A DNA stretch of 64,000 nucleotides from Gemmatimonadaceae bacterium (GTDB taxonomy: Bacteria; Gemmatimonadota; Gemmatimonadetes; Gemmatimonadales; Gemmatimonadaceae), in contig JBHYGA010000006.1 of assembly GCA_051859245.1 (NCBI GenBank), positions 192,001 to 256,000 of the forward strand, read 5' to 3'. The notes under the pieces are model-generated. The model made no database searches. It was given only the letters and a program-made list of their open reading frames with translations, and was not told the DNA's origin. A program made the position numbers and the translations under genes. Shown here one piece after another: positions 6,146 to 56,850 of the stretch; within the stretch, counting starts at the first letter, position 1; every line of letters starts with the position of its first letter.

Positions 6146-6385
6146 ATCCCAACGCTCCACACGTGTGCTAATTCCGAAGGGACCTGCGGCCGCATCGTCG
6201 GCCACCGGTCGAACGGCTGAACGTACCTACGGACAACGACCCCCGGAATCTTCAGGTGCCCGCACGCCGCGCTCACCGAATGCCGCTCCAAGCATGCTCC
6301 GCGCTAACCGCACGATGCAACGTCCGCACGCACCGGCCCGTAGCTGCACCGAACCTCACGCCCCGCACGCCCGCGCATTAACATC

Positions 6386-36290: not shown

Positions 36291-37384
36291 TGATGCGTCT
36301 TCACGTTCGTGTACGAACTCTCTTCGACTGGCAGCGTGACCAATGCACGCGTGCCGCCACCCTGCGGTCGCTCGAGGATCAGTGAGGCACGTGTGCCGTA
36401 GAGCAGCGCGAGACGATCGCGTGTGTTCTGCAGACCAATGCCACGCACCGCGTTCACATGCCCGCGACCATTCGTTGACACGGCCGGCACATCAACACCC
36501 AGGCCATCGTCTTCCACGAACAGCATGAGCAGGTCGCTCACCCGATCCGCGCCGATGCGAACGCGTCCGCCCGACTCGCGCGCGGCGAGCCCGTGTTCGT
36601 ACGCGTTCTCGACCAGCGGTTGCAGCACAAAGAACGGCACGCGTGCGCTGCGCGCCGCATCGTCCACGTCCCATTCCACCACAATGCGATCACCAAAACG
36701 CAGTTGCATGAGTTCGACATAGCGCGCCAGCAAATCGAGCTCGCGTTCGAGCGCGTGCTCCTCCGTTTCCTCGTGCAGGGTCACGCGCAGCAGGTCGGCA
36801 AAGCGCGTGAGCATGCGGTCGGCGGCCATCGGATCCGCGTGCACGAGCGTTGTGACCGCGTTGAGCACATTAAACACAAAATGCGGTTGCAACTGCGTTC
36901 GCAGCGCCGCGAGCCGCGCCTCGGCGAGCCCGCGCGCAAGTCCGGCCTCGCGCACCTCGCGGGCGCGTTCCGAGCGATAGTAGTGAACGGCGTGTAGTAG
37001 TGCGACCATCACTACGAAGACGGTGAAGTAGGTGAGCGTCCGCGCGGTCGCGCTGGCTGCGACGTCGGGAACACCGGCGATGGCCACGACGACGGGCGTC
37101 ATCAACACGTGCCGGAGCCAGGCGGCTGCCAGCGTGCCGAGCAGCAGGATGCCCGCGTTCCGCCACGGCCGCGGGCGTCCGATCGGAAAGCGGCGAACGA
37201 GCGCGGCGAGCGGTGGCAAAAGCGGCAAACACGTCCACCACATCGCCAGCGACCAGACAATCTGTTCGACCCAGCGCGGGTCTTCACCACGGTCGAGGTT
37301 CGCAATGCTTCCGCGCAGCGCGTAGAGCAGGGCGAAGAACGTCGTCAGCACGACGGCGCCCACGGGCACGATGCGCCGTTCCAT
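36287..37384 (-). CDS. LytS/YehU-type sensor histidine kinase
   Basis: QLQPHFVFNVLN, LQPLVENA, GIGLQNTRDRL; N-terminal TM helices. Confidence 0.92.
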   Translation of the reverse strand: MERRIVPVGAVVLTTFFALLYALRGSIANLDRGEDPRWVEQIVWSLAMWWTCLPLLPPLAALVRRFPIGRPRPWRNAGILLLGTLAAAWLRHVLMTPVVVAIAGVPDVAASATARTLTYFTVFVVMVALLHAVHYYRSERAREVREAGLARGLAEARLAALRTQLQPHFVFNVLNAVTTLVHADPMAADRMLTRFADLLRVTLHEETEEHALERELDLLARYVELMQLRFGDRIVVEWDVDDAARSARVPFFVLQPLVENAYEHGLAARESGGRVRIGADRVSDLLMLFVEDDGLGVDVPAVSTNGRGHVNAVRGIGLQNTRDRLALLYGTRASLILERPQGGGTRALVTLPVEESSYTNVKTHQ

Positions 37385-37499
37385 GGCGGACTCCGGAGAG
37401 CCGATGTCCCCCTGTTCCCGCGCGCGTGTCGTCACGTTGCAGTATCGGGGCGGTGAGTTGGCGCGGTCAAGAGCGTTCGCACCACTGGGTGCGCTCAAC

Positions 37500-37994
37500 T
37501 CAGCGTGCCACGACGGGCCGCGTGCGTCGCGTGGCCGTCATCGGAAGCAGCGCGCCACCGTGATACTGGACAATGCCTTGCATTGAGCGCCCGTTGTCGG
37601 TTAATCGCCCGTTGAACGGTACGTCGCCTTCGCGAGACGCAACCACCATCTGCACGGAGTCGCCGCGCACGGTGAGCAGGCGGATCGCCAGCGTGTTCGT
37701 TGAGTCCGGCGTGAGCGATCCGGCCCACCCGTGTTCCACGGGACCGAGCGCAAAGAAGCCGCTCGACGTGCGTTCACCCACACGCATGGTGAAGTCCCAA
37801 ATGCCCTGCAAGTCGGGAACGCCGCCGAGTGTGGTCGCGCGTGCGGCGGGCTGCTCGGCGGGCGTCGCGGCGGGTGAACGGACCGGCTGTGCTCCAGCCG
37901 TTCCGGATGCCAGCAGGATGGCGGCCAGCGCCGCAACGGAAGGCGCCGAGCGTTTTGCTGCGTAAAGGTGGTGGTCGTTGAAAACGAGTGACAT
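37500..37994 (-). CDS. Small secreted hypothetical protein
   Basis: Signal-like segment ending AGA-Q; DLQGIWDF; co-oriented upstream of the kinase. Confidence 0.6.
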   Translation of the reverse strand: MSLVFNDHHLYAAKRSAPSVAALAAILLASGTAGAQPVRSPAATPAEQPAARATTLGGVPDLQGIWDFTMRVGERTSSGFFALGPVEHGWAGSLTPDSTNTLAIRLLTVRGDSVQMVVASREGDVPFNGRLTDNGRSMQGIVQYHGGALLPMTATRRTRPVVAR

Positions 37995-38606
37995 GCTGAC
38001 GCTCCGGTGCGAGGTTGAGGTATTTGCACAGAGTAGGCGCAACCGGCACGAGGTGTCGAAACGAAGACGTGAAGTGGACGTCGCGCGGGCTCAGTCGGTC
38101 CTTAGAGCATGTTGACGGCGCGCTCGTCGCCCAGACACTGTCGGGCTGAGCTCACATGACGATCTCTGCAGCTATCGCTCCGGCGTCTGCGCGTCCTAGC
38201 AATAGCCACGGCAACGTCGCCGTGGGTGACACGCCCAGATTGCGCATGACGTTGCCGGAGTTCGGGCCGTACATGGAAAAACCTCGCGAGGTGTGAGATG
38301 GCGTGTTTGAGAATCACGAGCGGACGGGCGAGACAGTCTCCCCGCGTCTGTAAGCACACCAGCAAACTCGTACGCCACCGTCACCGGGCGATCGCCTCAC
38401 AATCACCTGACGGTCACCAGACGTTACGAAGGCTGTGCTTCGCAGGCATTTAGAGGACGAATCCTCCGAGCGGTGCGAGTTGCGGACGATCGCTTCGCTA
38501 GCCCATGATTCCTTTGTTCGCCGCCGAGCATCAAGGTGAGTCCTCACGCCAAAAGCATATGAGAGCGCGAAGGCCTCGTTCAAGCAAACCGAACTGGATA
38601 CTATCC

Positions 38607-39179
38607 ATGAAGCAGACAGCGCCTGCGCGCACCTTGCTCTTCTTCTCACAAATCGTCGGCGCAACGCTGCTGCTCGCGGCGGCTTCGCTTAGCGCCCAAT
38701 CGCCCACTCCCGGCACCTATCGACTGCATCTCTGCGCAGCGCGTTGTGCAGCGGCCGATTCAGCGCAGGCACTTGCCGCTGCGACCATCGTGATTGCGGA
38801 TGATTCAATGGCGAACAGCACTGCATGGAAGGATGCAATGACTGCGATCCGCGGGCGCCGACTGATGCGTCAATCCAGTCCAACGGACAACGTGTGCTTC
38901 AATATTGAGCAGCGAAGTAGCAACGTGGGAGCAGAGGAACTTTTCTTTGGTATCTACAGGAATGGCAGCACGCGCTGGAAGCGCACGAGTGCTGACACAC
39001 TGACACTGCGCGTTTTCCAGTCGCCCGACGCGAGCTATGACCTGCGATGGGTAGGAACAGGAGACAGCATCAGCGGCGAAGGCTGGTCAACGGGGTGGCA
39101 GGCAAACAACGCGCCGCACCGCAACGCGTTCTTTGTGGCCGTGCGTACCGGTTCGCCCGCGTCAATCGCGTGCCGATGA
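38607..39179 (+). CDS. Secreted hypothetical protein
   Basis: Signal peptide ending LSA-Q; four Cys. Confidence 0.6.
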   Translation: MKQTAPARTLLFFSQIVGATLLLAAASLSAQSPTPGTYRLHLCAARCAAADSAQALAAATIVIADDSMANSTAWKDAMTAIRGRRLMRQSSPTDNVCFNIEQRSSNVGAEELFFGIYRNGSTRWKRTSADTLTLRVFQSPDASYDLRWVGTGDSISGEGWSTGWQANNAPHRNAFFVAVRTGSPASIACR

Positions 39180-39390
39180 TTGCGGAGACCACGTCGTGCG
39201 TGTCGAAATCGCGACTGAGCCCTGCCTCGCAGTTGAGGCGCTTGGTGGTCGGTATTCGAGGACGAAGGCACGCCGTGTCAGGGTTTTGATGGCAGCGGGC
39301 GCGAGCCAGCGCAGCTAGCCTTGCACGGACGCACTCTCGTCGGGTAAACACGATGCCCGATCAACCTACCGAACGCAGTGTCAGCGGGAG

Positions 39391-41313
39391 ATGTTCGTGA
39401 TCGACCAGCTCATCCAGACGCCCCGCGACCTGCTTTATCGAGGCCTCTTCGAGCATTCGCTTGTGGAGGTACACATGTGGCGCGTCGTTCGCGATGCGTC
39501 CGGTGAAATCGTCACGTGGAAGCTTGTGGACGCCAACCCGAACGCACTCAAGGTCTGGGGGAAAACCCTCGACGAGGTGGTTGGCCTCACCACGGATGAA
39601 ATTTTCCCTGGTGTCGGTGCGTCCCGCACCTTCATGCCGATCGTGCGTGACATCATGACGACGGGCGCGCCGCACGAATGGGAGATCGATTTTCCAGTGA
39701 CCAATCAGATACTGCGCATGGTGAGCTTTCCCGTGGGCGAGTATTTCGTGAGCACCGGCTTCGATGTCACAGACCAACGTCGACAGGAGCAAGCACTCCG
39801 CGAGGCGCTTGACAGTTTGGAGCAGGCGTCTCGCGCTGGTGGTGTCGGTCTCTGGGACTGGGATCTGCGCACCAACCAAGTACACTATTCCGACGAGTGG
39901 AAACGGCAGCTTGGCCACGAACCGCACGAGATTGCCGACAACTATGATGAGTGGCAATCGCGGGTGCACGCCGATGACCTGGTCGACGCACTCAAAAACA
40001 CTCAGGAGCAGATCCAGTCTCCAGGCTCGCAGCAGTCAATGAGCTTCCGCATGCGGCACAAGGACGGATCGTATCGGTGGATCCTTGCGCATTCTACAGT
40101 CTTCACGAATGCGGAAGGCGAACCTGTCCGCATGCTTGGCTCTCACATCGATGTGACCGAACGGCGGCGGCTGGAAGAACAGTTACTGAAGTCGCAAAAG
40201 CTGGAGTCGGTGGGAACACTGGCCGCAGGTATCGCGCACGACTTCAACAATCTGCTTACCGCGATCATGGGCAACCTCTCGCTGCTCAAGTTCGGTGCGC
40301 CGTCAACCGCCGAGGGTCGCTCGCTCCTCACAGAAGTTGAGGAGGCTGCTGGACGGGCAAGGTCTCTCACATCGCAGCTGCTCACCTTTGCGAAAGGCGG
40401 CGCTCCGGTTCCACAGGTGGCCTCGATACAAAACGTGATTGTTGACTCCGCATCGTTTGTGAGCCGAGGCTCGCGCTCACGGTGCGAGTTTGTCATTGAT
40501 GCGCAGCTCAAGAACGTCAACGCCGACGTGGATCAAATCAGCCAGGTGGTTGAGAATCTCGTGATCAACGCGGCACAGGCCATGCCACATGGCGGCATCA
40601 TTACCATCCGCGCATCCAATGTCGTCGTGCATCGGCAAAACGAGTGGGACCTTGCACCTGGTGAGTACGTGAAAGTGTCAGTGACAGACTGTGGCAGCGG
40701 CATCCCGCAGACCCAGCTGGCACGGATCTTTGATCCCTTCTTCACGACAAAAGCCACTGGCTCGGGATTGGGGCTGTCCACTTCATATTCCATTGTCGCT
40801 CGGCACGGCGGCCGATTGACCGTTGAGTCACACGTTGGAACAGGGTCCACGTTCACCTTCTTCCTTCCCGCATCGAACGCCGATGCGCCTCAGCGGGAAG
40901 AACGCGCCGTTGTACGAGGTGCAGGCCGATTGCTGGTCATGGACGACGACGCGCAGTTACGTCGCTTGATGAAGCGGCTGCTCGAGGGGCTGGGTTACGA
41001 GTGCGATGTTGCGGAGGACGGCGACGAGACGCTGGCCCACTTTCGCAAAGCGGTGAGCGACCGTCGCCCCTACGCGGCCGTGATTCTGGACCTGACGATA
41101 CCCGGAAAGGACGGGGGGCGCGAGACACTGGCGCGTCTCAGGAATCTGGATCCCACGGTGGTCGCCGTTGTCGCCAGCGGCTACGATGATGACAACCTGC
41201 TTTCGGGATACAACAATCAGGGCTTTAACGGTCGTCTGAGAAAACCGATGGACATCGCGACACTCAGTGCCGAAATCGCCCGGGTCATCCGACAATCAGG
41301 GCGATCGGCGTGA
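39391..41313 (+). CDS. Hybrid PAS sensor histidine kinase/response regulator
   Basis: PAS/PAC (GLWDWD, VHADD, RHKDGSYRW), AHDFNN, NLVINA, DPFFTTK, GLGL, REC (MDDD, LDLT, KP). Confidence 0.93.
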   Translation: MFVIDQLIQTPRDLLYRGLFEHSLVEVHMWRVVRDASGEIVTWKLVDANPNALKVWGKTLDEVVGLTTDEIFPGVGASRTFMPIVRDIMTTGAPHEWEIDFPVTNQILRMVSFPVGEYFVSTGFDVTDQRRQEQALREALDSLEQASRAGGVGLWDWDLRTNQVHYSDEWKRQLGHEPHEIADNYDEWQSRVHADDLVDALKNTQEQIQSPGSQQSMSFRMRHKDGSYRWILAHSTVFTNAEGEPVRMLGSHIDVTERRRLEEQLLKSQKLESVGTLAAGIAHDFNNLLTAIMGNLSLLKFGAPSTAEGRSLLTEVEEAAGRARSLTSQLLTFAKGGAPVPQVASIQNVIVDSASFVSRGSRSRCEFVIDAQLKNVNADVDQISQVVENLVINAAQAMPHGGIITIRASNVVVHRQNEWDLAPGEYVKVSVTDCGSGIPQTQLARIFDPFFTTKATGSGLGLSTSYSIVARHGGRLTVESHVGTGSTFTFFLPASNADAPQREERAVVRGAGRLLVMDDDAQLRRLMKRLLEGLGYECDVAEDGDETLAHFRKAVSDRRPYAAVILDLTIPGKDGGRETLARLRNLDPTVVAVVASGYDDDNLLSGYNNQGFNGRLRKPMDIATLSAEIARVIRQSGRSA

Positions 41314-42710: not shown

Positions 42711-43942
42711 CACCGCACCTCTTGCTGCTGTCACTCTCCCTGCTGCGTGCGGCGACGGTCGACACGCTCCACGCGGTCGACGTGTACGGTCTTCGCGCAA
42801 CGTCGGAGGCCGATGTTCGCACCGCAATCGGTCTGCGTGCCGGTGATCCGCTGCCACAATCGCTTGACGCTGTTCGTGCGCGGCTACAACGCCTTCCCGG
42901 TGTGGAGGACGTGGATCTCTCGCCCGTGTGCTGCAGTGAGAACGGTCGCACGATTCTCTATGTTGGCATCCGCGAACGTGGCACGCCACCGATCACCTAT
43001 CGACCAGCTCCTGTTGGTGCGGCGCGGCTTCCGTCGGACATCGTGGGCGCCGGCCGCCGATTTGAATCGGCATTGTTGCGCGCCGTACAACGCGGTGTGA
43101 CCGGTGAGGACCACGCACCAGGTTATGCGCTCGCTGAAGACTCGGCGCTGCGATCAGTGCAGCAGGAGTTCATTGCACTCGCCACTGAGCACACGGACAC
43201 GTTGGTTTCCGTGCTCCGGAACGCAGGTGATGCGCGTCACCGTGCGCTGGCTGCACAATTGCTGGCGTACGGTACAAGTCGGCAAGTAATCGCGCGTGAA
43301 TTGTTGCACGCGGTCAGTGACCCAAGTGATGATGTTCGCAACAACGCCGTACGCGCGTTGGCCGTGCTCGCCGATTGGGTGAATCAACACCCCGATAGTG
43401 GCGTTGCGATTCCGTCCGCGCCGTTTGCGGAGTTGTTGCACTCGGTGTCATGGACGGACCGCAATAAGGGCATCATGGTGCTTGTGCCGCTCACGGCTCC
43501 TCGCGACTCGACGCTGCTCGCCGATCTTCGCAGGCGCGCGCTCTTGCCGCTTGTTGAAATGGCGCGTTGGACAAATCCTGGACACGCGCTCGGTCCGTTC
43601 ATTGTTGTGGCGCGGATTGCAGGACTCACCGATGGCGATGCGTTTCAGGCCTTTCAGTCCGGCGCGCGTGAAGCGGTGATTGCGCGGGTGCTCAACAAGT
43701 CTGGCTCACCGCCAACGCATCACGTCTTCACGTCGCGACACACTGATCGCATCGAGCAGCGCCTCGTCGTGCGAGGCCACGATAATCGCACCGTCGTAGG
43801 AGCGCAGCGCGGCTTCCAACCCGTCCAACTGCTCAAGGTCGAGATGATTGGAGGGTTCGTCCAACAGCAGGCACCGTGGCACGTGTGGGCCTGCCATCAC
43901 ACACGCGAGCGCTGCGCGAATCCGTTCGCCGCCGCTCAATGA
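42707..43942 (+). CDS. Secreted POTRA-like plus HEAT-repeat protein
   Basis: YGLR..SEADVR..GLRAGD POTRA-like start; DPSDDVRNNAVRAL HEAT repeat; last ~79 codons overlap the convergent ABC-F gene. Confidence 0.65.
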   Translation: MTPHLLLLSLSLLRAATVDTLHAVDVYGLRATSEADVRTAIGLRAGDPLPQSLDAVRARLQRLPGVEDVDLSPVCCSENGRTILYVGIRERGTPPITYRPAPVGAARLPSDIVGAGRRFESALLRAVQRGVTGEDHAPGYALAEDSALRSVQQEFIALATEHTDTLVSVLRNAGDARHRALAAQLLAYGTSRQVIARELLHAVSDPSDDVRNNAVRALAVLADWVNQHPDSGVAIPSAPFAELLHSVSWTDRNKGIMVLVPLTAPRDSTLLADLRRRALLPLVEMARWTNPGHALGPFIVVARIAGLTDGDAFQAFQSGAREAVIARVLNKSGSPPTHHVFTSRHTDRIEQRLVVRGHDNRTVVGAQRGFQPVQLLKVEMIGGFVQQQAPWHVWACHHTRERCANPFAAAQ

Positions 43943-45325
43943 CGCGACCGGCTGCAGCGCCGCGTCAGCCCGGAAATGAAATCGCGCGAGTGCGGCCCGT
44001 ATCTCCGTGACGTCGGAGGTGGGATGATGCGCTGCGAATGCGTCGAGCACCGTCGTGCCAACATCGAGCAGGGTGGCGTGCTGGTCGAGGAACGCGATCC
44101 GATGCGTTGGCACTCCTCGGTGAATGCTACCAGCAAGTGGGGCGATGTGACCAGCGATCACGCGGAGCAGGGTGCTCTTGCCGGCCCCGTTCGGTCCAAC
44201 CAGCGCCACGCGCTCAGGCCCTCGAATGGAGAGCGTGACGTCAGACAAGAGTGGTATTCCGGGTGCCGGCCCGGCAACGACACCGTCAAGTGAGACCACC
44301 GTGGTGCCCGCCGGCAGACCACTCGGAGGCAGCGTCACGGCGATCCCCTCGTGTGTACTGGCCAACATCGCCGCGTCGCGTCGCCTGGTCTCCGCCGCGG
44401 AAACCAGTCGTGCGGCGGTATCAGTGAGGCGTGCGGTGGTGCCCTCGCTGCGCTCACGCTTGGCGTTGAGCACGAGTTTCGGTTGGCTTCCCGTTTCACG
44501 CGTCCGCCGACCTGCGGCCTCACGCCGCGCCTGACGCTCGCGCACTTCCTGTGCGTGTTGTCGCGCGCGCGCCGCCTCGGCTTCTGCATTCGCGGCGTCG
44601 CGGAACGCTGCCGCGCGTTCAATCTCCCGCTGTTCGCGATAGAAATCCCAACCGCCACCATAGCTGCGAAGTGTCCCGCGTTCGATCGCGACAATGCGCT
44701 CCACGCGCTGCAACAGTGCTCGGTCGTGCGAGACGACAATCAGTCCGCGCGGCCAGTTTTCCACGAGGGATTCAACAGCCAGTCGGCTCTCGCGATCGAG
44801 GTCGTTAGTGGGCTCATCAAGCAGCAGCAGATCCGGTGCGGCAATCAGCTGCGCGGCGATGGCGAGACGCGTGGCTTCGCCGCCGCTCACCTCGTGGATT
44901 AGCCGCTCGAGCGGCAGATGTCCGAGGCGGAGGCGCGCAAGCGCGGCGTTGGCACGCTCTCGCGTGTCCCAGGCATCCCCAATCGTGAGCAGATCGTCGG
45001 CTGAGGCGAGTCCTTCGTCGGCACGGCTGAGCGCGTCAACGATGGGCGCCACGCCGAGACCGTGCGCCACCGTCTCGCCAAGAGCGCTGATTGCACGCTG
45101 GGGCGCGTAGCCTACGCGTGCCGGTCGCATGACATGCCCCGTCGCAGGCACGAGCTCGCCGGCGACCACTCTGAGCAACGTGCTTTTGCCAGAGCCGTTT
45201 GCGCCGATCAAGCCGACCCGTTCGTTCGCCATCGCGAACCGCGGGATTTCCAGCAACGGTCGACCATCGGGCAGCCGCAGAGAGACCCCGTCCAGTATGA
45301 GCGATGAATTGGCGTGTCTAGACAT
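43706..45325 (-). CDS. ABC-F family ATPase
   Basis: Two NBDs (GANGSGKS/SGGE/LLLDEPTN; GPNGAGKS/LSGGE/LLLDEPSN), helical linker, no TM. Confidence 0.92.
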   Translation of the reverse strand: MSRHANSSLILDGVSLRLPDGRPLLEIPRFAMANERVGLIGANGSGKSTLLRVVAGELVPATGHVMRPARVGYAPQRAISALGETVAHGLGVAPIVDALSRADEGLASADDLLTIGDAWDTRERANAALARLRLGHLPLERLIHEVSGGEATRLAIAAQLIAAPDLLLLDEPTNDLDRESRLAVESLVENWPRGLIVVSHDRALLQRVERIVAIERGTLRSYGGGWDFYREQREIERAAAFRDAANAEAEAARARQHAQEVRERQARREAAGRRTRETGSQPKLVLNAKRERSEGTTARLTDTAARLVSAAETRRRDAAMLASTHEGIAVTLPPSGLPAGTTVVSLDGVVAGPAPGIPLLSDVTLSIRGPERVALVGPNGAGKSTLLRVIAGHIAPLAGSIHRGVPTHRIAFLDQHATLLDVGTTVLDAFAAHHPTSDVTEIRAALARFHFRADAALQPVASLSGGERIRAALACVMAGPHVPRCLLLDEPSNHLDLEQLDGLEAALRSYDGAIIVASHDEALLDAISVSRREDVMRWR

Positions 45326-45391
45326 GCGACCAGGGAACTCGTTTCTCAGGGGCCGGTGATAAGAGCTGCGCACACGTGACTAAACTTCAGT

Positions 45392-46819
45392 ATGTCCACA
45401 AATGCTCTCTCGGCCGATGTCGGCCGCGCGCACGTGGTACTTGATGCTACCACGCGTGACGCGAAGCCACACGTGGTGATCCTGGGCGGTGGCTTCGCCG
45501 GTTTGTCGGCGGCTCGCGAGCTTGAGGATGCCCCGGTTCGCGTGACGCTCATTGATCGCGCCAATCACCACGTGTTCCAGCCGCTGTTGTATCAGGTTGC
45601 CACCGCCGGACTTTCGCCCAGCGACATCTCCGTGCCGATTCGCTGGCGACTGCGCAAGCAGCGTAACGTGACCGTGTTGCTTGCGAGCGCGACACGCATT
45701 GATCCGCAGGCGAAGTTTGTCGAGCTCGACAGCGGTGAGCGACGGCTCAGCTACGACTATCTGGTGGTCGCAACGGGTGCACGGCATGCGTACTTCGGTC
45801 GCGACGAATGGGAAGCGCACGCGCCAGGACTCAAGTCGATTGAAGACGCACTCGAAATGCGGCAGCGTTTTCTCATGGCGTTCGAGCTGGCTGAAAAATC
45901 AGAGAGCGAGGCCGAGCGCGATGCACTGTTGACGTTCGTGATTGTGGGCGGTGGTCCGACGGGTGTGGAGTTGGCTGGTGCACTCGCCGAAATCGTCAAG
46001 GGTGCACTCCGACGGGACTTTCGGCGCATTGATACGCGTCGTGCACGTGTGTTGCTTGTGGAAGCGGGTCGGCGCATCCTGCCCACGTTTCCTGAGAAGT
46101 TGTCGTCTGTTGCGCAGCGTGATCTTGAAAAGCTTGGTGTTGAGGTGCGTTTGGGTGTACCTGTGACGCACATCGAAGATTCGGTTGTTACCGTTGGTGC
46201 GGAACAGATTCGCACCGGCGCGATTTTCTGGGCCGCAGGCAATGCTGCGTCTCCACTTGGCGCCATGCTCGGTGCCACTACTGACCGATCCGGGCGCGTG
46301 CAGGTAGCACCTGATCTGTCCGTGCCATCGCATCCGAACGTGTTTGTGGTCGGTGACCTGTGCACGATTGCGCGACGCGACGGGACGCCTGTGCCTGCCG
46401 TTGCGCCGACAGCAAATCAAACGGGCGCGCACGCCGGTCGCATGATTGTGCGCAGTGTGGCGGGCGAATCACGCGAGCCGTTTGTGTATTTTCACAAAGG
46501 GGATCTGGCAACGATCGGACGGCATAAAGCCGTCTCAGCGTTCGGACGTGTAACGGTCACCGGATACATCAGCTGGTTGCTCTGGGTGTTCGTGCATCTG
46601 ATGTACCTTGTTGGATTCCGCAATCGTGTCACGGTGTTTGTGCAGTGGGCGTACGCCTATCTCACCTATCAGCGAGGTGTGCGGCTGCTGTCCACCACAT
46701 GGATACGCGGTGCGCGTCTCGAGCCTGCGGTCACTGCGCCCGCACCGCCTCTGACGGATCAATCCGTGACGCGCGCACCGCCGGAAGCCAGCACGCTGCC
46801 ACACCAATCGCGGCCATGA
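45392..46819 (+). CDS. ndh: Type II NADH:quinone oxidoreductase (NDH-2)
   Basis: GGGFAG, FQPLLYQVAT, GGGPTGVELAG, WAAG, GD. Confidence 0.9.
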   Translation: MSTNALSADVGRAHVVLDATTRDAKPHVVILGGGFAGLSAARELEDAPVRVTLIDRANHHVFQPLLYQVATAGLSPSDISVPIRWRLRKQRNVTVLLASATRIDPQAKFVELDSGERRLSYDYLVVATGARHAYFGRDEWEAHAPGLKSIEDALEMRQRFLMAFELAEKSESEAERDALLTFVIVGGGPTGVELAGALAEIVKGALRRDFRRIDTRRARVLLVEAGRRILPTFPEKLSSVAQRDLEKLGVEVRLGVPVTHIEDSVVTVGAEQIRTGAIFWAAGNAASPLGAMLGATTDRSGRVQVAPDLSVPSHPNVFVVGDLCTIARRDGTPVPAVAPTANQTGAHAGRMIVRSVAGESREPFVYFHKGDLATIGRHKAVSAFGRVTVTGYISWLLWVFVHLMYLVGFRNRVTVFVQWAYAYLTYQRGVRLLSTTWIRGARLEPAVTAPAPPLTDQSVTRAPPEASTLPHQSRP

Positions 46820-49169
46820 TCACTGCGACCGACAACATCGTGGCGGGGTCGTTCGGCTCCACGTTGAAAAGCAGTCCCTGAATCAATCGTGAGAGCGCGA
46901 GCGAGCCCACAACGCCGAGTGTGAGCCCGAGGCCAACGAGCAGCCCGCCTTCTTTCAGAATCATACGTTGCACGTGACCCGGCGACGCACCAAGGCTCAT
47001 GCGAATGCCGATTTCATTTGTGCGGGCGCTCACCGAGAACGCGAGCACCGCCGCAATGCCGATGGCCGCGATGACGAGTGCAAGCAAACCGAACGAGCCC
47101 ACGAGCATCGCGTTGAGTCGACGTGGCCCCACGCTCTCGTCACGAATGGCGTCGATCGTGAGCACGTTTTCCACCGGTTGTGTGGGCGCGACCGAACGCG
47201 CAATCTCGCGCGCTGCAAGCGCGAGGCTCGAGGCGTCGACGGTTGAACGCAGCACCATACCGCCTGACGGGAAATCACCCTGCGCAAACGGGATGAAGGT
47301 GACGGGCACCGGATTCTTGTCGAGTCCGCCGTCCTTGGTGTCGCGCACAACGCCCACCACTTCGCGCCAGTCGCCCGAGATGCCGGTGAAGCTCAGCACT
47401 TCACCCGTCCACGCCACGCGTCGCCCAATCGGATCGATGCCGGGAAACAGCAGCCGCGCGAGCGTCTCGTTGATGATCACCACTTTCGCGCCGCCTGCGC
47501 GATCACCGGCGGTGAAATCGCGCCCTTTGAGCAGCGTTATGCCCGACGCGCGGAAGTAGCCCGGGTCGGCGGTGCGATACTCGCTCTGCGGCACCGCTTC
47601 ACCCTGCGCGGTCACGCGACCTTCCGCTTTCATCTCGAGTTGAAACTGCGCGGAACGCAGCGGCATCGTGGAGCCCACGCCTACCAACTCAACACCAGGC
47701 AACCGCGAAAGCTCGCGCTGCATGCGCTCGTACATTCCCACCGCGCCCTGAAGGCTTGCCTGTTCGGTAAAGTCGATCGGTACTTCCATGGTGAGCACAT
47801 TCCCTGGCTCAAGACCCGGGTCCACCGCCGCTAGGCGCTGCATGGAACGCACCAGCAATCCCGCGCCAGTCAGCAGCACCAACGACACCGCGACCTGCGT
47901 GACGACCAACGCCTGCTGCAGTCGCTTGCGCCGCGAACCTCCAGTGGATTTGGTGCCTCCGGCTCTGAGCCCCGCACCCAGCGCGCCTTCGTCACCAATG
48001 CTCGGCGCGAATGCCAGCATGAGCGCGACCAGCATCGAGAGTGCAAACGTGAAGAGCAGCACCGTGCCGTCTACTACAATCTCATCCGCGCGCGGACTGA
48101 AGCGCGCCGCGAATGTGGACAGCATGCCGACGCCCGCAAACGCGACGACCAGGCCAAGCGCCGCACCCATCAGCGCCAAGACCGCGTTCTCGGCGAGCAG
48201 AAGCCGACGGAGCCGACTGGTGCCCGCACCGAGTGCGGCGCGCACTGTCATTTCATGCTCACGACGCACGCCGCGCATGAGCGTAAGGTTGGCGACGTTG
48301 GCACACGCAATCACGAGTACAAACGCGGCCGCGCCCATCAGCAGATAGAGCGTCAGTCGCGCGTCTTGTCCCAGCACTTCCTGCAGTGGCGTCATGGTCA
48401 CTTTGTAACCGGAGCCGGCGTCGTACGATTCCGGACTGGCCGCGTGCATGCGTTGCGTGATTGTCGCGACTTCGGCCTGCGCCTGTTCCACCGTCGCGCC
48501 AGGCGCGAGCCGCGCGATCATTTCCGTCATGCGATGCGTGCGTCCCTGCACCATCATCGCGCTCACGTGGTGTTCGCTGATGGACATGTTCATCAACGCT
48601 TCAATGCGTCCCGGAAAAAACGGCGCCGGCTGAAGCACGCCGATGACTTCCACCTGTCGGCCACCAATTCGCAGCGAGCGGCCGACGATCGAAGAATCGG
48701 CCGCGTACTGCGATCGCCAGTACCCGTCGGTGAGCATCACCACGGGTGCAGCGCCGGCCCCGTCGTCAGCGTCATTGAAGGACCGGCCAAGCACCGGGCG
48801 CAGTCCCATCACGGAGAGATAGTTGCCGGTGACGAGACCAACGTCGATCTGTCGGGCGTCCTGGTCCTCAACCAGGTTGAGGGTGAGCGGCGAGTATTCG
48901 GCGATCTGGCCGAGCGTTTTGGACTGTTCGCGAAAGTCGTTGATCTCGGGCACGGAGAACGCCGTGTTCTCCATCGCATTGGTCGCGTGCCGCAAGTACA
49001 TCAGGCGGTCGCCTTCCTGATGTGGCAGCGGGCGCAGCAAAACGCCGCGTACCACGCTGAAGATTGCCGTGTTGGCGCCAATCCCGAGTCCGAGCGTGAG
49101 GACTACCGCCGCGGTGAATCCCGGGGAGCGGGCGAGGCTGCGGAGGATGTAGCGGAGCATGATCTTCAT
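46731..49169 (-). CDS. Duplicated MacB/FtsX-like orphan ABC permease
   Basis: LGLGIGANTAIFSVV, IACANVANL, RTNEIGIRMSLGA, PAVRASRIDP; no adjacent ATPase. Confidence 0.9.
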   Translation of the reverse strand: MKIMLRYILRSLARSPGFTAAVVLTLGLGIGANTAIFSVVRGVLLRPLPHQEGDRLMYLRHATNAMENTAFSVPEINDFREQSKTLGQIAEYSPLTLNLVEDQDARQIDVGLVTGNYLSVMGLRPVLGRSFNDADDGAGAAPVVMLTDGYWRSQYAADSSIVGRSLRIGGRQVEVIGVLQPAPFFPGRIEALMNMSISEHHVSAMMVQGRTHRMTEMIARLAPGATVEQAQAEVATITQRMHAASPESYDAGSGYKVTMTPLQEVLGQDARLTLYLLMGAAAFVLVIACANVANLTLMRGVRREHEMTVRAALGAGTSRLRRLLLAENAVLALMGAALGLVVAFAGVGMLSTFAARFSPRADEIVVDGTVLLFTFALSMLVALMLAFAPSIGDEGALGAGLRAGGTKSTGGSRRKRLQQALVVTQVAVSLVLLTGAGLLVRSMQRLAAVDPGLEPGNVLTMEVPIDFTEQASLQGAVGMYERMQRELSRLPGVELVGVGSTMPLRSAQFQLEMKAEGRVTAQGEAVPQSEYRTADPGYFRASGITLLKGRDFTAGDRAGGAKVVIINETLARLLFPGIDPIGRRVAWTGEVLSFTGISGDWREVVGVVRDTKDGGLDKNPVPVTFIPFAQGDFPSGGMVLRSTVDASSLALAAREIARSVAPTQPVENVLTIDAIRDESVGPRRLNAMLVGSFGLLALVIAAIGIAAVLAFSVSARTNEIGIRMSLGASPGHVQRMILKEGGLLVGLGLTLGVVGSLALSRLIQGLLFNVEPNDPATMLSVAVIMAAIGVAACWLPAVRASRIDPSEAVRAQ

Positions 49170-51016: not shown

Positions 51017-51574
51017 ATGAAGAACGTATTGAAGGCCGTGGCGTTGACCGCCGTCATGGCGAGTGTTGTTGCAGCACAAAAGCCATTGCGAGCGGCGCCT
51101 GGTACCGCTGTGAAGATCGCGGTGGTCGAGTTCACTCCGGTTGATGATGCCACAATCATGACCGACAACGCCAAGCGCTGGTTGCAGTCACAACTATCAG
51201 CCACGTTGCACGACACCCGAAAGTTTGATGTCTACGATACACGTCATACCCGGCGCGCAACGCAGAACAATCTTCCGGCGATCAACCATGACAGCTCCAC
51301 GGTGGCCGCGGTAAACGCAGGCAAAGAGCTCGGTGTCGCCTACGTGCTCACGGGCGTCGTGACCAGGTATACGCCCAAGGGAGACGGCGACTTCGGGTAC
51401 ACCACGATTCGCACGCGTCTGGTGGACGTTGCGACGGGCAAAGTCAAACACGTTGGTGAAACAACGCAGAAAGGCTGGGGCAAGATGAACACCACCGGTG
51501 AAGCCGAGATGCAGGCGAAGGTGATGAAGCCCGCGATTGACTCGATCACGGCCACGCTGTTCGCGGCCATGTGA
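51017..51574 (+). CDS. Secreted CsgG/HfaB-like (TolB-N fold) protein
   Basis: GAGG RBS; signal peptide; IAVVEF, GKELGVAYVLTGVV, RLVDVATG. Confidence 0.7.
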   Translation: MKNVLKAVALTAVMASVVAAQKPLRAAPGTAVKIAVVEFTPVDDATIMTDNAKRWLQSQLSATLHDTRKFDVYDTRHTRRATQNNLPAINHDSSTVAAVNAGKELGVAYVLTGVVTRYTPKGDGDFGYTTIRTRLVDVATGKVKHVGETTQKGWGKMNTTGEAEMQAKVMKPAIDSITATLFAAM

Positions 51575-51630: not shown

Positions 51631-52308
51631 TCAGGCGTGTCTGCGCGTGCGTCGCACGGCAATCAACGCCGCGGCGCCGACGACCAGTAGCGCGATCGAG
51701 GAAGGTTCTGGTACAGTGATCGCCGCGCTTTCGAAGGTGGCGACGAACTCGTTGTCGATGTCCGCGGTATTGCTCTCGGCCCATTGACACGTCGAGAGGA
51801 GCTCGGCCGTATCATCACCGCAGCTATATGCAAAAATCGAGGCGCCGCCGTCGTATGAGTTGAACCACTCACCATCGAGGCGGACACGTCGGTATGCGAG
51901 ATTGCCCGACGTGCTGAGCAGAAACGCAACGTACTGCGCGCCTGGCGTGACGGTCAGCTCGCCAGTGGTGAAGTCCACTCGCTCCTGCGGACAGCATTCG
52001 GGTGTATCCCTCGGCCCACTGCTATACAGCACTTCTCCAACCGGCATCGAGCCGTTCCACTGCATCAGATACGCTTCGTAGCTCGAGACCAGACCTAGGC
52101 CGCCGCCCGAAAGCCAGAACGAAAACTGCGTCAGTGTTGTTGCGCCAGCTGGTGCGGTGAACGTCTGACCGAAGCCACTGCTGACGCCGCTGGTGAGGTA
52201 TTCACCCGTTCGCGTGTCGATCGTTTGTGCACTTGCGACACCAGCACCGGCGAGTGTCGCAGCGCTGGCGACAAGCGCAACGGTCCATCGTCGAAAACTC
52301 ATGAACAT
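51631..52308 (-). CDS. PEP-CTERM sorting domain protein
   Basis: Signal peptide ending ASA-Q; C-terminal VPEPSSIALLVVGAAALIAVRRTRR. Confidence 0.9.
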   Translation of the reverse strand: MFMSFRRWTVALVASAATLAGAGVASAQTIDTRTGEYLTSGVSSGFGQTFTAPAGATTLTQFSFWLSGGGLGLVSSYEAYLMQWNGSMPVGEVLYSSGPRDTPECCPQERVDFTTGELTVTPGAQYVAFLLSTSGNLAYRRVRLDGEWFNSYDGGASIFAYSCGDDTAELLSTCQWAESNTADIDNEFVATFESAAITVPEPSSIALLVVGAAALIAVRRTRRHA

Positions 52309-52552
52309 ATTCACTCCTCGAAAGAATCGATAAAGATGAGCGCGCTGAGCGCCAGCGTCTCGCCACTCGTCATACGGAATTCTCGCGTCCAGCCGGACAT
52401 TGTGATCCGTGTGCTTCAGCACGCGCGATGCGTGAGGTGTCAGCGGTGTTCGTGGTCGATGTCTGAAGTTCAGCCTGCTTTCCGTACGCAGGTGCAGGAG
52501 CAGTGCTTGTTGCTCCTTCGATACATCCACCATACGCGTTTCAGGAGTTCTC

Positions 52553-52969
52553 GTGAACATCAAACAACTCGCGCGGCGAAGTGTGCTCGCGGCGTCCGGC
52601 CTCGCGCTCGTTGCGTGTCAGGACGCGCCGACGACACCATCGATCCGTGAGGTACCAGTGTTGGCCAAGTCAAAACCGCAGTCGGCACCGACCGTCGTGC
52701 CATTGAGTCCGTCTGCGCTGCGCGTCGATGCCCTGCGCGATGCATTGGACCGCGTGCAAACCGCGTTGGTGTCGGACGATCGCGCGAAGGCAATTGCGGT
52801 TGGTCTGCGGCAGGCGATCAGCGCCCTTGAACGCGGCGATTCGCAGAGCGTCGCGCGGGCGCTCAAGGGCGTCGAACAGACACTCGAATCGTACACCGCA
52901 GCCGACGCGGCAATGGCTCCTGATCTCGATGTGCTGCGCCTCGCCTTGCGCACCGCCGCCTCAAGCTGA
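52553..52969 (+). CDS. Small helical lipoprotein
   Basis: AGGAG RBS, GTG start, lipobox LVAC. Confidence 0.75.
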
Positions 52970-52994: not shown

Positions 52995-53669
52995 ATGACT
53001 ATGCGCGATACGCCATCACGCGCCGTTCGGCGGCGATTCTCTCTGCCGTTGCTGGCGCTCACCATCACCGCTGCCTTCGCCCTGCGTGCTGCACCAGTCT
53101 CCGCCGCGGCACTGCCTGAACGATCAACCGATTCCGATGTGCTGTACGCCTGCTTCATTCCTGGCAGCGGCACCATCTATCGCATCAAGACCACGGATCC
53201 CGCCGAAACCTGCAAGTCGGCCAATCACATCCCGCTGCAGTGGCTGGCGGATGGCCCGCAGGGGCCGCAGGGTCCGATCGGCCCACAGGGGCCGCAGGGA
53301 CCGGCAGGCCCCGCTGGCCCGATCGGGGACGCGGGTGCCATTGGCCCCGTCGGACCGGTGGGTGTCCAGGGAACGACGGGCCCGATCGGACCGGCCGGTG
53401 AGCGAGGACCGGGCGGATCGGCGGGCATCGAAGTGATTGAGGTGTCGATTGAGAACGCCGTTGGCGCCGAGGACCAGTCGCTGCTGGCCGAGTGCCCGGC
53501 CGGCAAAAAGATCATCGGCGGTGGATTCTCTCAGAATCCTTCGAACGGCAATGTCGGCGAGTCACGGCCCACCTCCGACAACACCGGCTGGTTCGTGTAC
53601 GTGAACGACCTCTGGCTCAGCTCACCAAATATCAAAGCGTTCGCAATCTGCGCGGTCTGGCTGCCGTGA
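52995..53669 (+). CDS. Secreted collagen-like protein, paralog 1
   Basis: Signal peptide, Cys-pair N domain, 20 Gly-X-Y triplets, CPAGKK..GGG C domain. Confidence 0.88.
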
Positions 53670-53716
53670 TGCACGTCAAGCGCTCTCCACATTCTCAACC
53701 TGCGGAATACATCACG

Positions 53717-54373
53717 ATGTCTCTCCACAAATCTCAGCGCGTGTGGCAACGGTGCGCGCTTGCCCTCTTGCTTGGTAGCGCACTGGCTGCGCCCGCTCTT
53801 CACGCCGATTCGCTTCGGTCAACGTCCGCGCACGACCCGGAAGCCATCTACGCCTGTTATGTGCCTGGCAGCGGTGCCATGTACCTCATCAAGACCACAG
53901 ATCCGACCGAAACGTGCAAGTCGGCGAGCCACATCCCGTTCCAGTGGCAGGCGACCGGACCGGCCGGTGAGCCGGGTCCGCAGGGACCCGCTGGCACAGT
54001 GGGTCCGCAAGGGCCGATGGGTCCAATCGGTCCGGCGGGGCCTGCCGGACCTCAGGGCCCGACCGGCCCGGCCGGGCTTCAAGGCCCGACCGGCCCGCAG
54101 GGAGCCGCTGGGCCAGGCGGATTCTCCGGCGTTGAAAAAATTGACGCGGATATCTGGAATGCGTGGGCCGACACCGACGGGACCGTCGTTGCGCAGTGCC
54201 CTGCCGGCAAGAAGGTGCTCGGAGGCGGATTCACGTTCCATCCTATCATTGGCCGGGTCGCCGAGTCGCGCCCCTCTGCTGACCGGACCGCGTGGGTTGT
54301 CCACTACACGCACCTTGGCGCCAGCCAAGGATGGCTCGGCGCTTGGGCTTTATGCGCCAATTGGGTGCCATAA
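53717..54373 (+). CDS. Secreted collagen-like protein, paralog 2
   Basis: Same architecture, 20 Gly-X-Y triplets. Confidence 0.88.
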
Positions 54374-54429
54374 CAAGAGCATCATAAATACACTCGCTTT
54401 ACACAATAGCTCACACATAGGAGTTCACA

Positions 54430-55089
54430 ATGTTGGCTTTAGAATCGAGACGCCGTCGCACTGATGTACGGCGATCCGTGCTCGCCGCAGTGACAGTCTG
54501 CGTCCTGGCGCTGCCGATCGCTCGCGCCGGAGCCATGCCGAGTACGCATCTGGATGACGAGATCATCCACGCCTGCTTCGTTCCGCAGAGCGGCACGCTG
54601 TACCGCATCAAGGCCACCGACCCCACGGAGACGTGCAAATCGGCCCAGCATGTGCCCATTCAGTGGAACATCACGGGAGACGTTGGGCCGGAAGGCGCGA
54701 CGGGAAGCGCCGGGCCGGCGGGTCCATCGGGGGCGAAGGGTCCGCAGGGCGCTGCAGGACCCGTCGGACCGCAGGGCGACGCCGGGGCGGTGGGACCGGC
54801 TGGCGCCAAAGGCGCGCTGGGACCCGCCGGACCAAACGGCGTTGTCGGCATTGAAGTGGTGAAGGTCACGGAGCAGCACGACTGGATCAGTTTTGATCAT
54901 CAAGTCTGGGCGTACTGCCCTGCCGGCAAAAAGGTGATCGCCGGTGGCCATTCCGTTGCCCCGAACGTTGGGCGCGTCACCGAATCGCGGCCGGAACCCG
55001 ACAACAAATCGTGGTATCTCTACGTGGACAGTCTCGCTGGCAACTCGCCGGATGTCACGGTATACGCCGTGTGTGCACCGTGGCCGTAA
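54430..55089 (+). CDS. Secreted collagen-like protein, paralog 3
   Basis: AGGAG RBS; same architecture, 20 Gly-X-Y triplets. Confidence 0.88.
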
Positions 55090-55090
55090 G

Positions 55091-56644
55091 CTACCAGTCC
55101 GTTGGCTTGTAGTCCTTCAGAAACTTGCCCCACACATGCGTGCCGGTGTTGATGCCATCAATGATCGGATCAACAATGCGCGCAGCACCATCGAGAATAT
55201 CCAGCGGCGGATGAAAGCGATGCTCGGCCACCTTGCGCGCGGCAATCTCCGCTGGATCCTCGTCGGTCACCCAACCCGTGTCCACCGCGTTCATGTGAAT
55301 GCCGTCGGTGTAATAATCCGCCGCCGCTGTGCGCGTCATCATGTTGAGCGCCGCTTTCGCCATGTTCGTATGCGGATGACGCGTCGTCTTGAACTTGCGG
55401 TAGAACTGTCCTTCCACCGCTGACACATTCACAATGTGTTTGTCGCGGTTTGGCGTGCGCAGCATGAGTGGCTTGAGACGCGCATTGATCAGGAACGGTG
55501 CGACCGCATTCACCAGCTGCACTTCGAGCAACTCCACGCTCGGTACCTCCGCCATCAGCATGCGCCACGAGTTGCGATCGCGCAGATCCACCTGCTGCAT
55601 GTCCTGATCCAGCTGTCCCTGCGGAAACAGATGCGCCTGCGGTGACGCTTCGTCTGGCAACAACGCGATCTGCGACAGCTCGGCGGCGTGCGTGAGGCCG
55701 GCAACACTGCCGAGTTGTTTTGTGGCAATCGAGGTGCTGCTGTCGGCACCCGTGCTCTCTGGCAGCATGTTGTACGAGCGAACGCCCTCGTACGCGCCGA
55801 GCACTTTCTGGATGTGCGCTGGCATGTTGCCAATCGACGCCGTTTCCAGATCCATCATGTGCTTGTAAAAGTCAGGCGGGCGCCGCACCGTCTGACACGC
55901 ATTGTTGATGATGAAGTCAAGACGGTCGTGCGTTTCGTTCAACTGATGACAAAACGCTTCAACACTCGGCGTGTGACGCAGATCGAGACCAAAAATTTCG
56001 AGCCGGTGTGACCATTCTTCAAAATCCGGCTCCATCGCGTAGCGCGCCGCGGAATCGCGCGGGAAACGCGTGGTCACAATAAGATGTGCACCGGCGCGCA
56101 ACAGCTTGATGCCCGCCTGGTAGCCGATTTTTACGCGACCACCGGTGAGCAGGGCGACGCGTCCAGACAAATCCGCCAGCTCGGTGCGCTTGGCGTAGTT
56201 GAACGCCGCGCAACTCGGGCAGAGCTGGTCGTAAAAGTGATGCAGTACATCGAACGACTGTTTGCACACATAACAGTGCTGCGCTTCAATCGCCTCGCGA
56301 AAATCAGGATCGTCCACCGTTTCCTGTTCATCGCCGCTCGGCAGGGCGTAGTTCGGCGTGGTGAACACGGTTTGCCGGCGCAGCGAGCGGATACCGGTGC
56401 TATTGAGTTGCGCCTCGGCGTCTTTCACGCGTTCCTGCCGCTCCGACTTTTTCTGGCGCTTGGTGGCTTTGACCAGCTGGCGCCGCAGAATGGCATCCGG
56501 GCGGGACACCTCACCGGCGGCGCGCAGCAGGCGATTGCGCTCCTCTTCGGAAATCTCAAGCAGACGCGCACGGTCCGTGGCCAGCGCTTCGAGCAGCGCC
56601 GTGGCTTCGCGGACCTGGGCCAGGAAATCGGGGGACTGGGGCAT
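55091..56644 (-). CDS. SDR family oxidoreductase with N-terminal CxxC...CxxC motif
   Basis: CYVC...CPSC, TGGRVKIG, INNA, NVSAVEG, HPHTNMAKAALN. Confidence 0.85.
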   Translation of the reverse strand: MPQSPDFLAQVREATALLEALATDRARLLEISEEERNRLLRAAGEVSRPDAILRRQLVKATKRQKKSERQERVKDAEAQLNSTGIRSLRRQTVFTTPNYALPSGDEQETVDDPDFREAIEAQHCYVCKQSFDVLHHFYDQLCPSCAAFNYAKRTELADLSGRVALLTGGRVKIGYQAGIKLLRAGAHLIVTTRFPRDSAARYAMEPDFEEWSHRLEIFGLDLRHTPSVEAFCHQLNETHDRLDFIINNACQTVRRPPDFYKHMMDLETASIGNMPAHIQKVLGAYEGVRSYNMLPESTGADSSTSIATKQLGSVAGLTHAAELSQIALLPDEASPQAHLFPQGQLDQDMQQVDLRDRNSWRMLMAEVPSVELLEVQLVNAVAPFLINARLKPLMLRTPNRDKHIVNVSAVEGQFYRKFKTTRHPHTNMAKAALNMMTRTAAADYYTDGIHMNAVDTGWVTDEDPAEIAARKVAEHRFHPPLDILDGAARIVDPIIDGINTGTHVWGKFLKDYKPTDW

Positions 56645-56850
56645 AGCCTTCAAAGATAGCCAATTCGGGGCTTCGCCGTCGCACTTCGCTTACCCGGAAA
56701 CGACCGTCCGCACCTGACATGTGTCCCATTACAGACCAGCCGCGACACTTGTCGGATACCGCCGTTGGGCATTCCCAACGATGCTGGAGTCGAGGGCGCG
56801 GGAATCACCCGTGCCTGCGTTGCATGCGACATTCGACGGGAGCCTGAACC

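Follow-up and report, generated by a model that had tools for sequence, protein, structure and literature searches.

Characterised bacterial collagen-like proteins are homotrimers according to the available part of one review (PMC8968730), as the preliminary description of the DNA analysed here had also said, and the same text names this homotrimer-only state as a limit for studying or producing heterotrimeric collagens with bacterial proteins. In a 2026 study, the accessible sections describe AlphaFold3 (AF3) modelling of the three Clostridioides difficile BclA paralogues, which gave homotrimers and no heterotrimers (PMC13188886), and the available text of a 2025 collagen-folding paper mentions no bacterial heterotrimers (PMC11923368). 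Literature searches gave, in the portions of text that they returned, no report of a natural heterotrimeric prokaryotic collagen or of collagen-like proteins from Gemmatimonadota. Here we analyse a 64,000-nucleotide stretch of the genome of a soil-type Gemmatimonadaceae bacterium (contig JBHYGA010000006.1, positions 192,001 to 256,000; hereafter the window), in which the list of open reading frames (ORFs) places side by side three co-oriented plus-strand genes for collagen-like chains that we call A, B and C. They are part of a conserved Gemmatimonadaceae operon of a lipoprotein gene and three old paralogous genes for secreted stalk-and-head proteins, or two such genes in a sister lineage. The best single reading of this operon, to which we assign a probability of roughly 0.45, is that A, B and C co-assemble into one mixed triple helix.

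The streptococcal proteins Scl1 and Scl2 and the Legionella protein Lcl, whose stalks are length-variable, resemble the three chains in being secreted and in setting an unbroken Gly-X-Y stalk beside a globular non-collagen domain. A, B and C differ from them in their N- and C-terminal domains, in having no LPXTG anchor by eye, and in being three equal-length paralogues accompanied by a lipoprotein gene. The only NCBIfam models that they match are those for Scl2 and Scl1 (NF038330, NF038329) and for Lcl (NF046116), and these matches are confined to the repeat and reach 31-44 bits, far below the cut-offs of 325-500. BclA, from the exosporium of Bacillus and Clostridioides, likewise joins a stalk to a C-terminal beta-sandwich head and occurs as several paralogues per genome; its head is thought to nucleate trimerisation, and its stalk lengths are highly variable. 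Unlike BclA, the three chains do not match PF18573, the C-terminal domain of BclA, at E values up to 1; other proteins matched in our searches bear it.

Complement C1q shares with the present locus three clustered paralogous genes, equal short collagen stalks and C-terminal beta-sandwich heads that differ from chain to chain. It has an interruption in only some of its chains, which may be compared with an extra residue in some orthologues of chain A described below. In contrast to C1q, however, A, B and C have no Pfam gC1q domain, and no C1q/TNF structure is among their top 50 fold matches. Their head has about 80 residues, six strands and one Cys pair, and the system is a bacterial operon with a lipoprotein, in which heterotrimer assembly is a prediction.

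Three adjacent genes and the domains of their products

The gene for chain A (52995-53669, + strand) encodes 224 residues, which comprise a leader, an N-domain with two Cys (about residues 46-86), 20 Gly-X-Y triplets (residues 87-146, at 53253-53432, found as a regular-expression run) and a beta-sandwich head closed by Cys167 and Cys219. Chain B (53717-54373, +) has 218 residues when read from the ATG at 53717, and its 20 triplets occupy residues 81-140 (53957-54136); an alternative ATG at 53669 overlaps the stop codon of A as TGATG. Chain C (54430-55089, +) has 219 residues with 20 triplets at residues 83-142 (54676-54855), and an AGGAG lies 8 nt 5' of its ATG. Pfam recognises the collagen repeat PF01391 and nothing else in the three proteins (E 1.4e-07 in A, where it spans residues 87-144, 2.4e-08 in B and 3.9e-09 in C), with scores of 31.6, 34.1 and 36.6 bits that all exceed the gathering cut-off of 27.2.

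In each chain the Gly-X-Y repeat is a single unbroken run of exactly 20 triplets, and exactly 20 residues separate the last triplet from the Cys of CPAGKK (Cys167 in A, Cys161 in B and Cys163 in C). When the three chains are aligned, gaps are confined to the leaders and to one position at the extreme C-terminus, and the 167 aligned residues that begin with the first Cys of the N-domain and end with the last Cys contain no indel. The ORFs, the regular-expression search and the alignment thus bear out the preliminary description, which had claimed three adjacent co-oriented genes with this exact spacing and with no indel between those cysteines; the N-domain motif, the first triplets and the ESRP, W and AxCAxW elements that it quoted are likewise all present in the alignment. 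Over the whole protein, B is 50% and C 45% identical to A.

The leaders of A, B and C have a basic n-region, a hydrophobic core and an AxA-like site, and by eye they resemble signal peptides, in agreement with the signal peptides first proposed for the three chains. Most leaders of the family also carry paired arginines before the hydrophobic core, and that of A has R-R-R-F, a loosely Tat-like feature; the stretches that carry these arginines lie at 52995-53120, 53717-53810 and 54430-54535 in the window and in the orthologues. Whether the chains leave the cell by the Sec or the Tat route would bear on where a trimer folds. The GC content of the three-gene region resembles that of the remaining window. 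The gaps between the genes are short (26 nt between the lipoprotein gene and A, 47 nt between A and B, and 56 nt between B and C), and a scan for terminator-like sites found none between the operon genes, with three sites in all against 2.2 expected.

AlphaFold2 models made with family alignments give chain A a mean predicted local distance difference test (pLDDT) score of 78.9. The N-domain, of about 40 residues with two Cys, is modelled as a small three-stranded element (pLDDT 81-93), the stalk as an extended segment, and the C-terminal domain, or head, as a six-stranded beta-sandwich of about 80 residues bracketed by two Cys (pLDDT 95-97 in the full-length model). Modelled by itself, the head has a mean pLDDT of 89.4 and a predicted template modelling score (pTM) of 0.77. 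Collagen rises by about 0.29 nm per residue, and at this textbook value the stalk would be about 17 nm long.

The head of A, B and C is an undescribed domain without a Pfam model, and no Pfam family was found for it in the 64 family members scanned. Fold searches against the PDB with the full-length model and with the head alone gave no match at E 0.001 (best E 0.04), and a search of a viral library with the head gave none at that level either (best E 0.004). The weaker matches are leads: they include R-pyocin fibre tips (6cl5/6cxb), resistin, the C-terminal modules of PCSK9 and Cna-type sandwiches, with values of E 0.04 and TMq 0.50 for 6cl5, E 0.05 for 1rgx and TMq 0.63 for 7anq. A PDB sequence profile search with the head returned one match, the tail fibre 7vul, at an E of 0.014 that is below significance, and in a Protein Atlas search the matches at 0.91 were clusters without names, while PCSK9_C was a lead at 0.78. 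The resistin head, the PCSK9 modules and the phage or pyocin fibre tips are small six-stranded beta-sandwiches set three-fold at the end of a trimeric stalk, a likeness that as a fold lead stays below significance.

The PHROG matches of the three chains to phage tail fibres raise the idea of a prophage or a tail fibre, which can be ruled out. These matches lie mainly at residues 65-195 or so and centre on the repeat, with none distinct to the N-domain or the head, and the neighbours are not phage genes: the locus is surrounded by ordinary chromosomal genes for methyltransferases, a short-chain dehydrogenase/reductase (SDR), a Rieske protein, a PEP-CTERM protein, and ATP-binding cassette (ABC) and two-component systems. 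A, B and C are therefore not prophage fibres.

Old paralogues with a constrained stalk length

Relatives were collected by protein searches with A and C and by a genome scan with the head motif, which gave 240 pattern matches, of which 142 were confirmed, and from which 80 loci of 12 kb were kept. Searching representative proteins exhaustively with chain C was of little use, because long collagen proteins match through the repeat: there were 46,092 matches at E <= 0.001, dominated by long collagen-repeat proteins, and among the 150 matches listed the short ones were P0123, P0005, P0200 and P0223, the first three of which match near the whole query.

The tree groups five A, five B and eight C proteins, each clade having 99-100 bootstrap support (starred), and A, B and C jointly form a clade (95/91*). 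Two sister clades with 18 triplets are D (six proteins and gene 1 of locus L001) and E (five proteins and gene 2 of L001). When the tree is rooted on an Actinobacteria-type outgroup, D (with P0283, a protein of 19 units that groups with D at 82/83 support), E and ABC form an open trichotomy. The named genomes that carry close relatives (L001-L003) are all Gemmatimonadaceae metagenome-assembled genomes; L003 contributes just a partial E-type gene at a contig end.

An A/B/C triad is found in all four loci whose neighbours can be judged, a count that omits the short-contig homologues P0004-P0008, P0010, P0012-P0015, P0272, P0274-P0280 and P0283. These loci are the window; L002, in which A, cut short by the contig edge, is directly seen to be followed by B and next by C; a 634918-nt contig (P0002, P0009 and P0271); and a 5986-nt contig (P0003, P0281 and P0273). 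For the last two, co-location is inferred from the same recorded contig size, not from sequence, and on the same basis P0007 and P0279 are probably a D/E pair on a 1793-nt contig.

The three paralogues have diverged widely. Among the window's genes, identity is 68-71% in the N-domain, 42-51% in the head and 22-38% at the X and Y positions of the helix, values that uphold the strong divergence of X/Y positions and heads first described. Clade averages for the head are 45-51% between paralogues and 70-74% within a clade, and X/Y identity in the close family is 47-62% within clades and 26-37% between them. At the DNA level the helices of A, B and C are 51-61% identical and share no exact stretch of more than 7 nt, which excludes gene conversion as the cause of their equal length. 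A, B and C are old paralogues; their equal length is inherited from duplication, yet it was kept while the X/Y positions and the helix DNA diverged.

This constancy extends to the whole close family. Measured from the first Gly of the helix to the Cys of CPxGK, the spacing is 80 residues in 16 of the 18 A/B/C proteins, 81 in the other two and 74 in all 11 D/E proteins, and no whole-triplet indel occurs in any of the 18. When pairs whose heads are 40-60% identical are compared, triplet counts agree in 82 of 288 inside the close family, where nearly all mismatches are 18 against 20, and in 8 of 922 outside it, the pairs being non-independent in both cases. Twelve single-copy Solirubrobacterales orthologues, at 63-89% identity, have 13 triplets (eight proteins), 14 (three) or 16 (one), and P0046 has eight triplets fewer than its close relative P0016, both being outgroup-type proteins outside the five clades. 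Because the wider-family pairs and the Solirubrobacterales orthologues vary in this way, we regard stalk length as unusually constrained in the close clade.

The exceptions in the close family fall in single chains. In the A orthologues P0002 and P0003 a single residue is inserted right behind triplet 10, halfway along the helix, where it could produce a kink or a register shift; the tree is silent on whether it arose once or twice. The last helix Gly is replaced by Asp or Ala in three of five B proteins, and P0280 has one helix Gly replaced. If the helix is mixed, such glycine losses and the insertion would each affect one chain of the trimer, and a single defective chain would be more easily tolerated than three in a homotrimer.

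The head is widespread, occurring in Actinomycetota, Acidobacteriota, Chloroflexota and other groups, and it is joined to between 0 and 119 triplets in distant loci and to as many as 162 among the proteins retrieved. In Streptomyces, other Actinomycetota and Acidobacteriaceae it forms the C-terminal end of small proteins of about 120-230 residues that lack any repeat; their genes lie around positions 5700-6300 of loci L035, L042, L046-L050, L053, L058, L061, L064-L066, L068, L072, L074, L077 and L079. Larger proteins that bear it include those of L056 (683 aa), L070 (487 aa) and L075 (388 aa). In Anaeromyxobacter terrae, the L063 protein (5896-6465, +) matches the N-domain at E 1.3e-05 and the head at E 1.3e-16, with no Gly-X-Y stalk between them. 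In L012 the head is split across two overlapping frames (5536-6399 and 6206-6460, +), a split that points to a frameshift in that collagen-like gene or to misassembly.

An alternative to a triple helix is that the Gly-X-Y run only spaces the two Cys-domains, as a flexible or polyproline-II segment, in secreted monomers that function through these domains. Since the head is found in many small proteins without a collagen repeat, it is an autonomous domain that need not trimerise, and the helix is short, carries few charged residues and is probably not hydroxylated, all of which would suit a monomer. A loose linker, however, does not call for the signature of a packed triple helix, and that signature is present: the Gly at each third position does not vary within the clade over 19-20 triplets, X is most often Pro, and the Pfam collagen scores pass the gathering cut-off in all three proteins. 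We consider a monomeric spacer very improbable. Among the few charges, Lys stands at Y of triplet 15 in all eight C-clade proteins and an acidic residue at X of triplet 17 in three of five A proteins; the offset is unlike that of the usual axial pair, and we draw nothing from this pattern.

Proposed co-assembly of A, B and C and its rivals

In the assembly that we favour, one transcript would give all three chains, which after export would zip up as one A-B-C triple helix. The divergent heads, together with the last triplets, which are chain-specific next to the head (GSAG[IL]E in A, GFS-x-VE in B and GVVGIE in C), would determine which chains come together and in what register. From its two genes, both with 18 triplets, the D/E system could give a 2:1 trimer, as in collagen I. 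Like the vertebrate collagen I trimer, (alpha1)2 alpha2, the D/E pair of L001 (18/18) would need that ratio if its helix is mixed; unlike collagen I, D and E share no homology with it beyond the repeat, have stalks about 50 times shorter and would rely on other chain-selecting domains. A role for the lipoprotein may be to anchor the trimer to the cell envelope or to act there as its chaperone, and the product, more speculatively, could be a fibre of the surface or matrix that binds a ligand through its mixed head.

In a complex prediction for the mature chains, A, B and C were given separate alignments and C was set as the partner; only the ABC combination was modelled. It gives weak support, with a score of 0.32 against 0.12 for the best control, at least 98% of contacts common to the runs and a pLDDT of at least 78 for the partner. 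Of 157 solved complexes, 116 reach the mark used by the tool, as do 2 of 215 mismatched pairs; with scores of 0.60 or under, only 18 of the 157 do so, along with both passing mismatches. The ABC job, with three chains and our own alignments, is unlike the tool's calibration. The prediction shifts the odds for a heterotrimer only slightly.

The same weak score would also fit promiscuous trimers, in which any combination of A, B and C zips together to give a combinatorial set of heads, as has been reported for some eukaryotic C1q/TNF-related proteins. With N-domains 68-71% identical and spacing that is the same in all chains, nothing obvious forbids such mixing. The strict keeping of three paralogues nonetheless suggests defined roles for the chains, as do the chain-specific triplets that adjoin the head, and we find promiscuous mixing unlikely.

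The more serious rival is a set of three homotrimers, AAA, BBB and CCC, on a shared mount such as the lipoprotein, with the stalk acting as a molecular ruler that holds three heads at the same height. It has precedent in the characterised bacterial proteins covered by the available text of PMC8968730 and in the absence of heterotrimers from the AF3 models of C. difficile BclA described in the accessible part of PMC13188886. The heads are diverged between paralogues and conserved within clades, as distinct ligands would predict, and a one-residue insertion confined to A in two genomes poses no problem when the chains do not share a helix. Several observations are harder to reconcile with homotrimers. 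Families of adhesins with variant tips usually vary in copy number and length, whereas here the copy number is fixed at three in four of four loci and no whole-triplet indel occurs in 18 of 18 proteins; any Gly loss would sit in all three chains of a homotrimer; and a ruler must be invoked separately for two tandem pairs of Actinomycetota. One of these, in L010, has 10/10 triplets, 47% identity and a helix without indel, and the other, in L006, has 18/18 units, 48% identity and a different Gly missing in each copy. We hold three homotrimers to be quite possible, though somewhat less probable than the mixed helix. The initial proposal that a frozen length fits selection for co-assembly therefore stands in part: length is far more constrained than in the wider family, and equal-length homotrimers stay a serious competing explanation.

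A number of results weigh against co-assembly into one mixed helix. Copy number is the first. A single head copy, judged with a model of the C-terminal domain, is present in 74 of the 80 12-kb loci, and because most relatives are single-copy the ancestral state was presumably homotrimeric; L001 has a two-copy D/E pair with 18/18 triplets and no third copy in the 6 kb that flank it on either side. The expectation that homologous loci come in threes thus holds for the four orthologous-clade loci and fails for L001 and for the single-copy majority. Stalk length is the second. Tandem pairs in L078 (3934-5274 and 5368-6420; 41 and 14 triplets) and L057 (4602-5516 and 5554-6378; 35 and 25 triplets) have unequal stalks, and these paralogues, which have large, well-conserved N-terminal domains, are counter-examples to a general rule of equal length. 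The B and C proteins that share contigs with P0002 and P0003 keep 80 residues, without the extra residue of A. Equal helix length within a locus, as first proposed, accordingly applies to L010 and L006 and to four of six tandem sets in all, ABC and DE included, and it breaks down in L078, in L057 and at the extra residue of A. Length is also as constant among orthologues as among paralogues, which a spacer of fixed length, or a ruler for homotrimers, predicts likewise.

Co-variation of triplet number between loci, a further part of the original proposal, is seen as 20/20/20 in the triad and 18/18 in L001, and this contrast can be explained by one event on the ABC stem of the tree. Because one indel event suffices for 18 against 20, independent co-variation is not demonstrated. 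The idea that D and E came to 18 triplets independently is itself weakened by the grouping of P0283 with D and by a constrained tree joining D-core and E, which is not rejected (p-AU 0.23). Finally, no complementary pattern of Lys and Asp/Glu between chains stood out when the helices were compared, and the complex prediction does not discriminate ABC from AAA, BBB and CCC; its weak pass could reflect resemblance to any triple helix of known structure.

Taking these points together with the fixed copy number, the frozen stalk and the single-chain defects, we retain the mixed A-B-C helix as the reading that best accounts for the operon. A broader proposal can be built on it, which we put forward tentatively and with less than even confidence: that these are the first natural heterotrimeric prokaryotic collagens, comprising ABC trimers and 2:1 D/E trimers, with partner selection and register set by the heads and with mounting on the lipoprotein, and that tandem paralogues of equal length originated repeatedly as the same solution, in Gemmatimonadaceae and in the Actinomycetota of L006 and L010. 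The cross-phylum head tree, built on 86 columns, leaves 31 of 61 branches open and does not establish that the L006 and L010 duplications were independent.

The lipoprotein, neighbouring genes and implications

A small lipoprotein gene (52553-52969, +; 138 aa) ends 26 nt upstream of A and is likely the fourth member of the operon. Its product has the lipobox L-V-A-C with Cys22, and in the alignment of its homologues this Cys is invariant and the C-terminal half is conserved; against Pfam it gives a sub-threshold FIMAH match alone (18.7 bits, cut-off 24.8). One homologue lies directly upstream of the collagen pair of L001 (phmmer E 1.3e-13), and another, P0376 (56% identity), is on the 634918-nt contig that holds an A/B/C triad. 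The conserved unit is, on account of these two homologues, the lipoprotein with two or three collagen-like genes.

Divergent from the lipoprotein gene is one for a PEP-CTERM protein (51631-52563, -; Pfam PEP-CTERM E 8.4e-05) with a conserved N-terminal domain. A homologue adjoins the L002 triad (2158-2823, -; phmmer E 6.7e-54), where it is convergent and downstream instead of divergent and upstream as in the window, and none was found in L001. The gene is possibly an associated neighbour of the collagen-like system.

Other genes nearby are noted here as observations. Two genes upstream of the operon, at 51017-51574 (+), a small secreted protein has a sub-threshold match to CsgG, the curli secretion channel, of E 0.0052 (16.5 bits, cut-off 20.8). 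On the opposite strand, a 520-residue SDR homologue (55091-56653, -) ends 2 nt past the stop codon of C and has a long N-terminal extension with a CxxC...CxxC motif. Farther upstream, 35391-41310 and 43709-49169 encode a LytTR response regulator and its histidine kinase, a hybrid PAS histidine kinase, an ABC ATPase and a MacB/FtsX-type permease, and in L001 an ORF of the size of a MacB/FtsX-like permease lies downstream of the collagen pair.

If A, B and C do form a heterotrimer, the operon would offer a simple model of how collagen chains choose partners and find their register, as well as a compact chain-selection domain for engineering recombinant heterotrimeric collagens, and it would mean that obligate mixed triple helices evolved outside animals too. 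Even if the three chains form homotrimers, the family is new in its Pfam-less head, its conserved lipoprotein partner and its unusually frozen stalks. A collagen-like family of this kind, with its lipoprotein and its stalks of fixed length, points to an undescribed fibre of the cell envelope in a poorly studied phylum.

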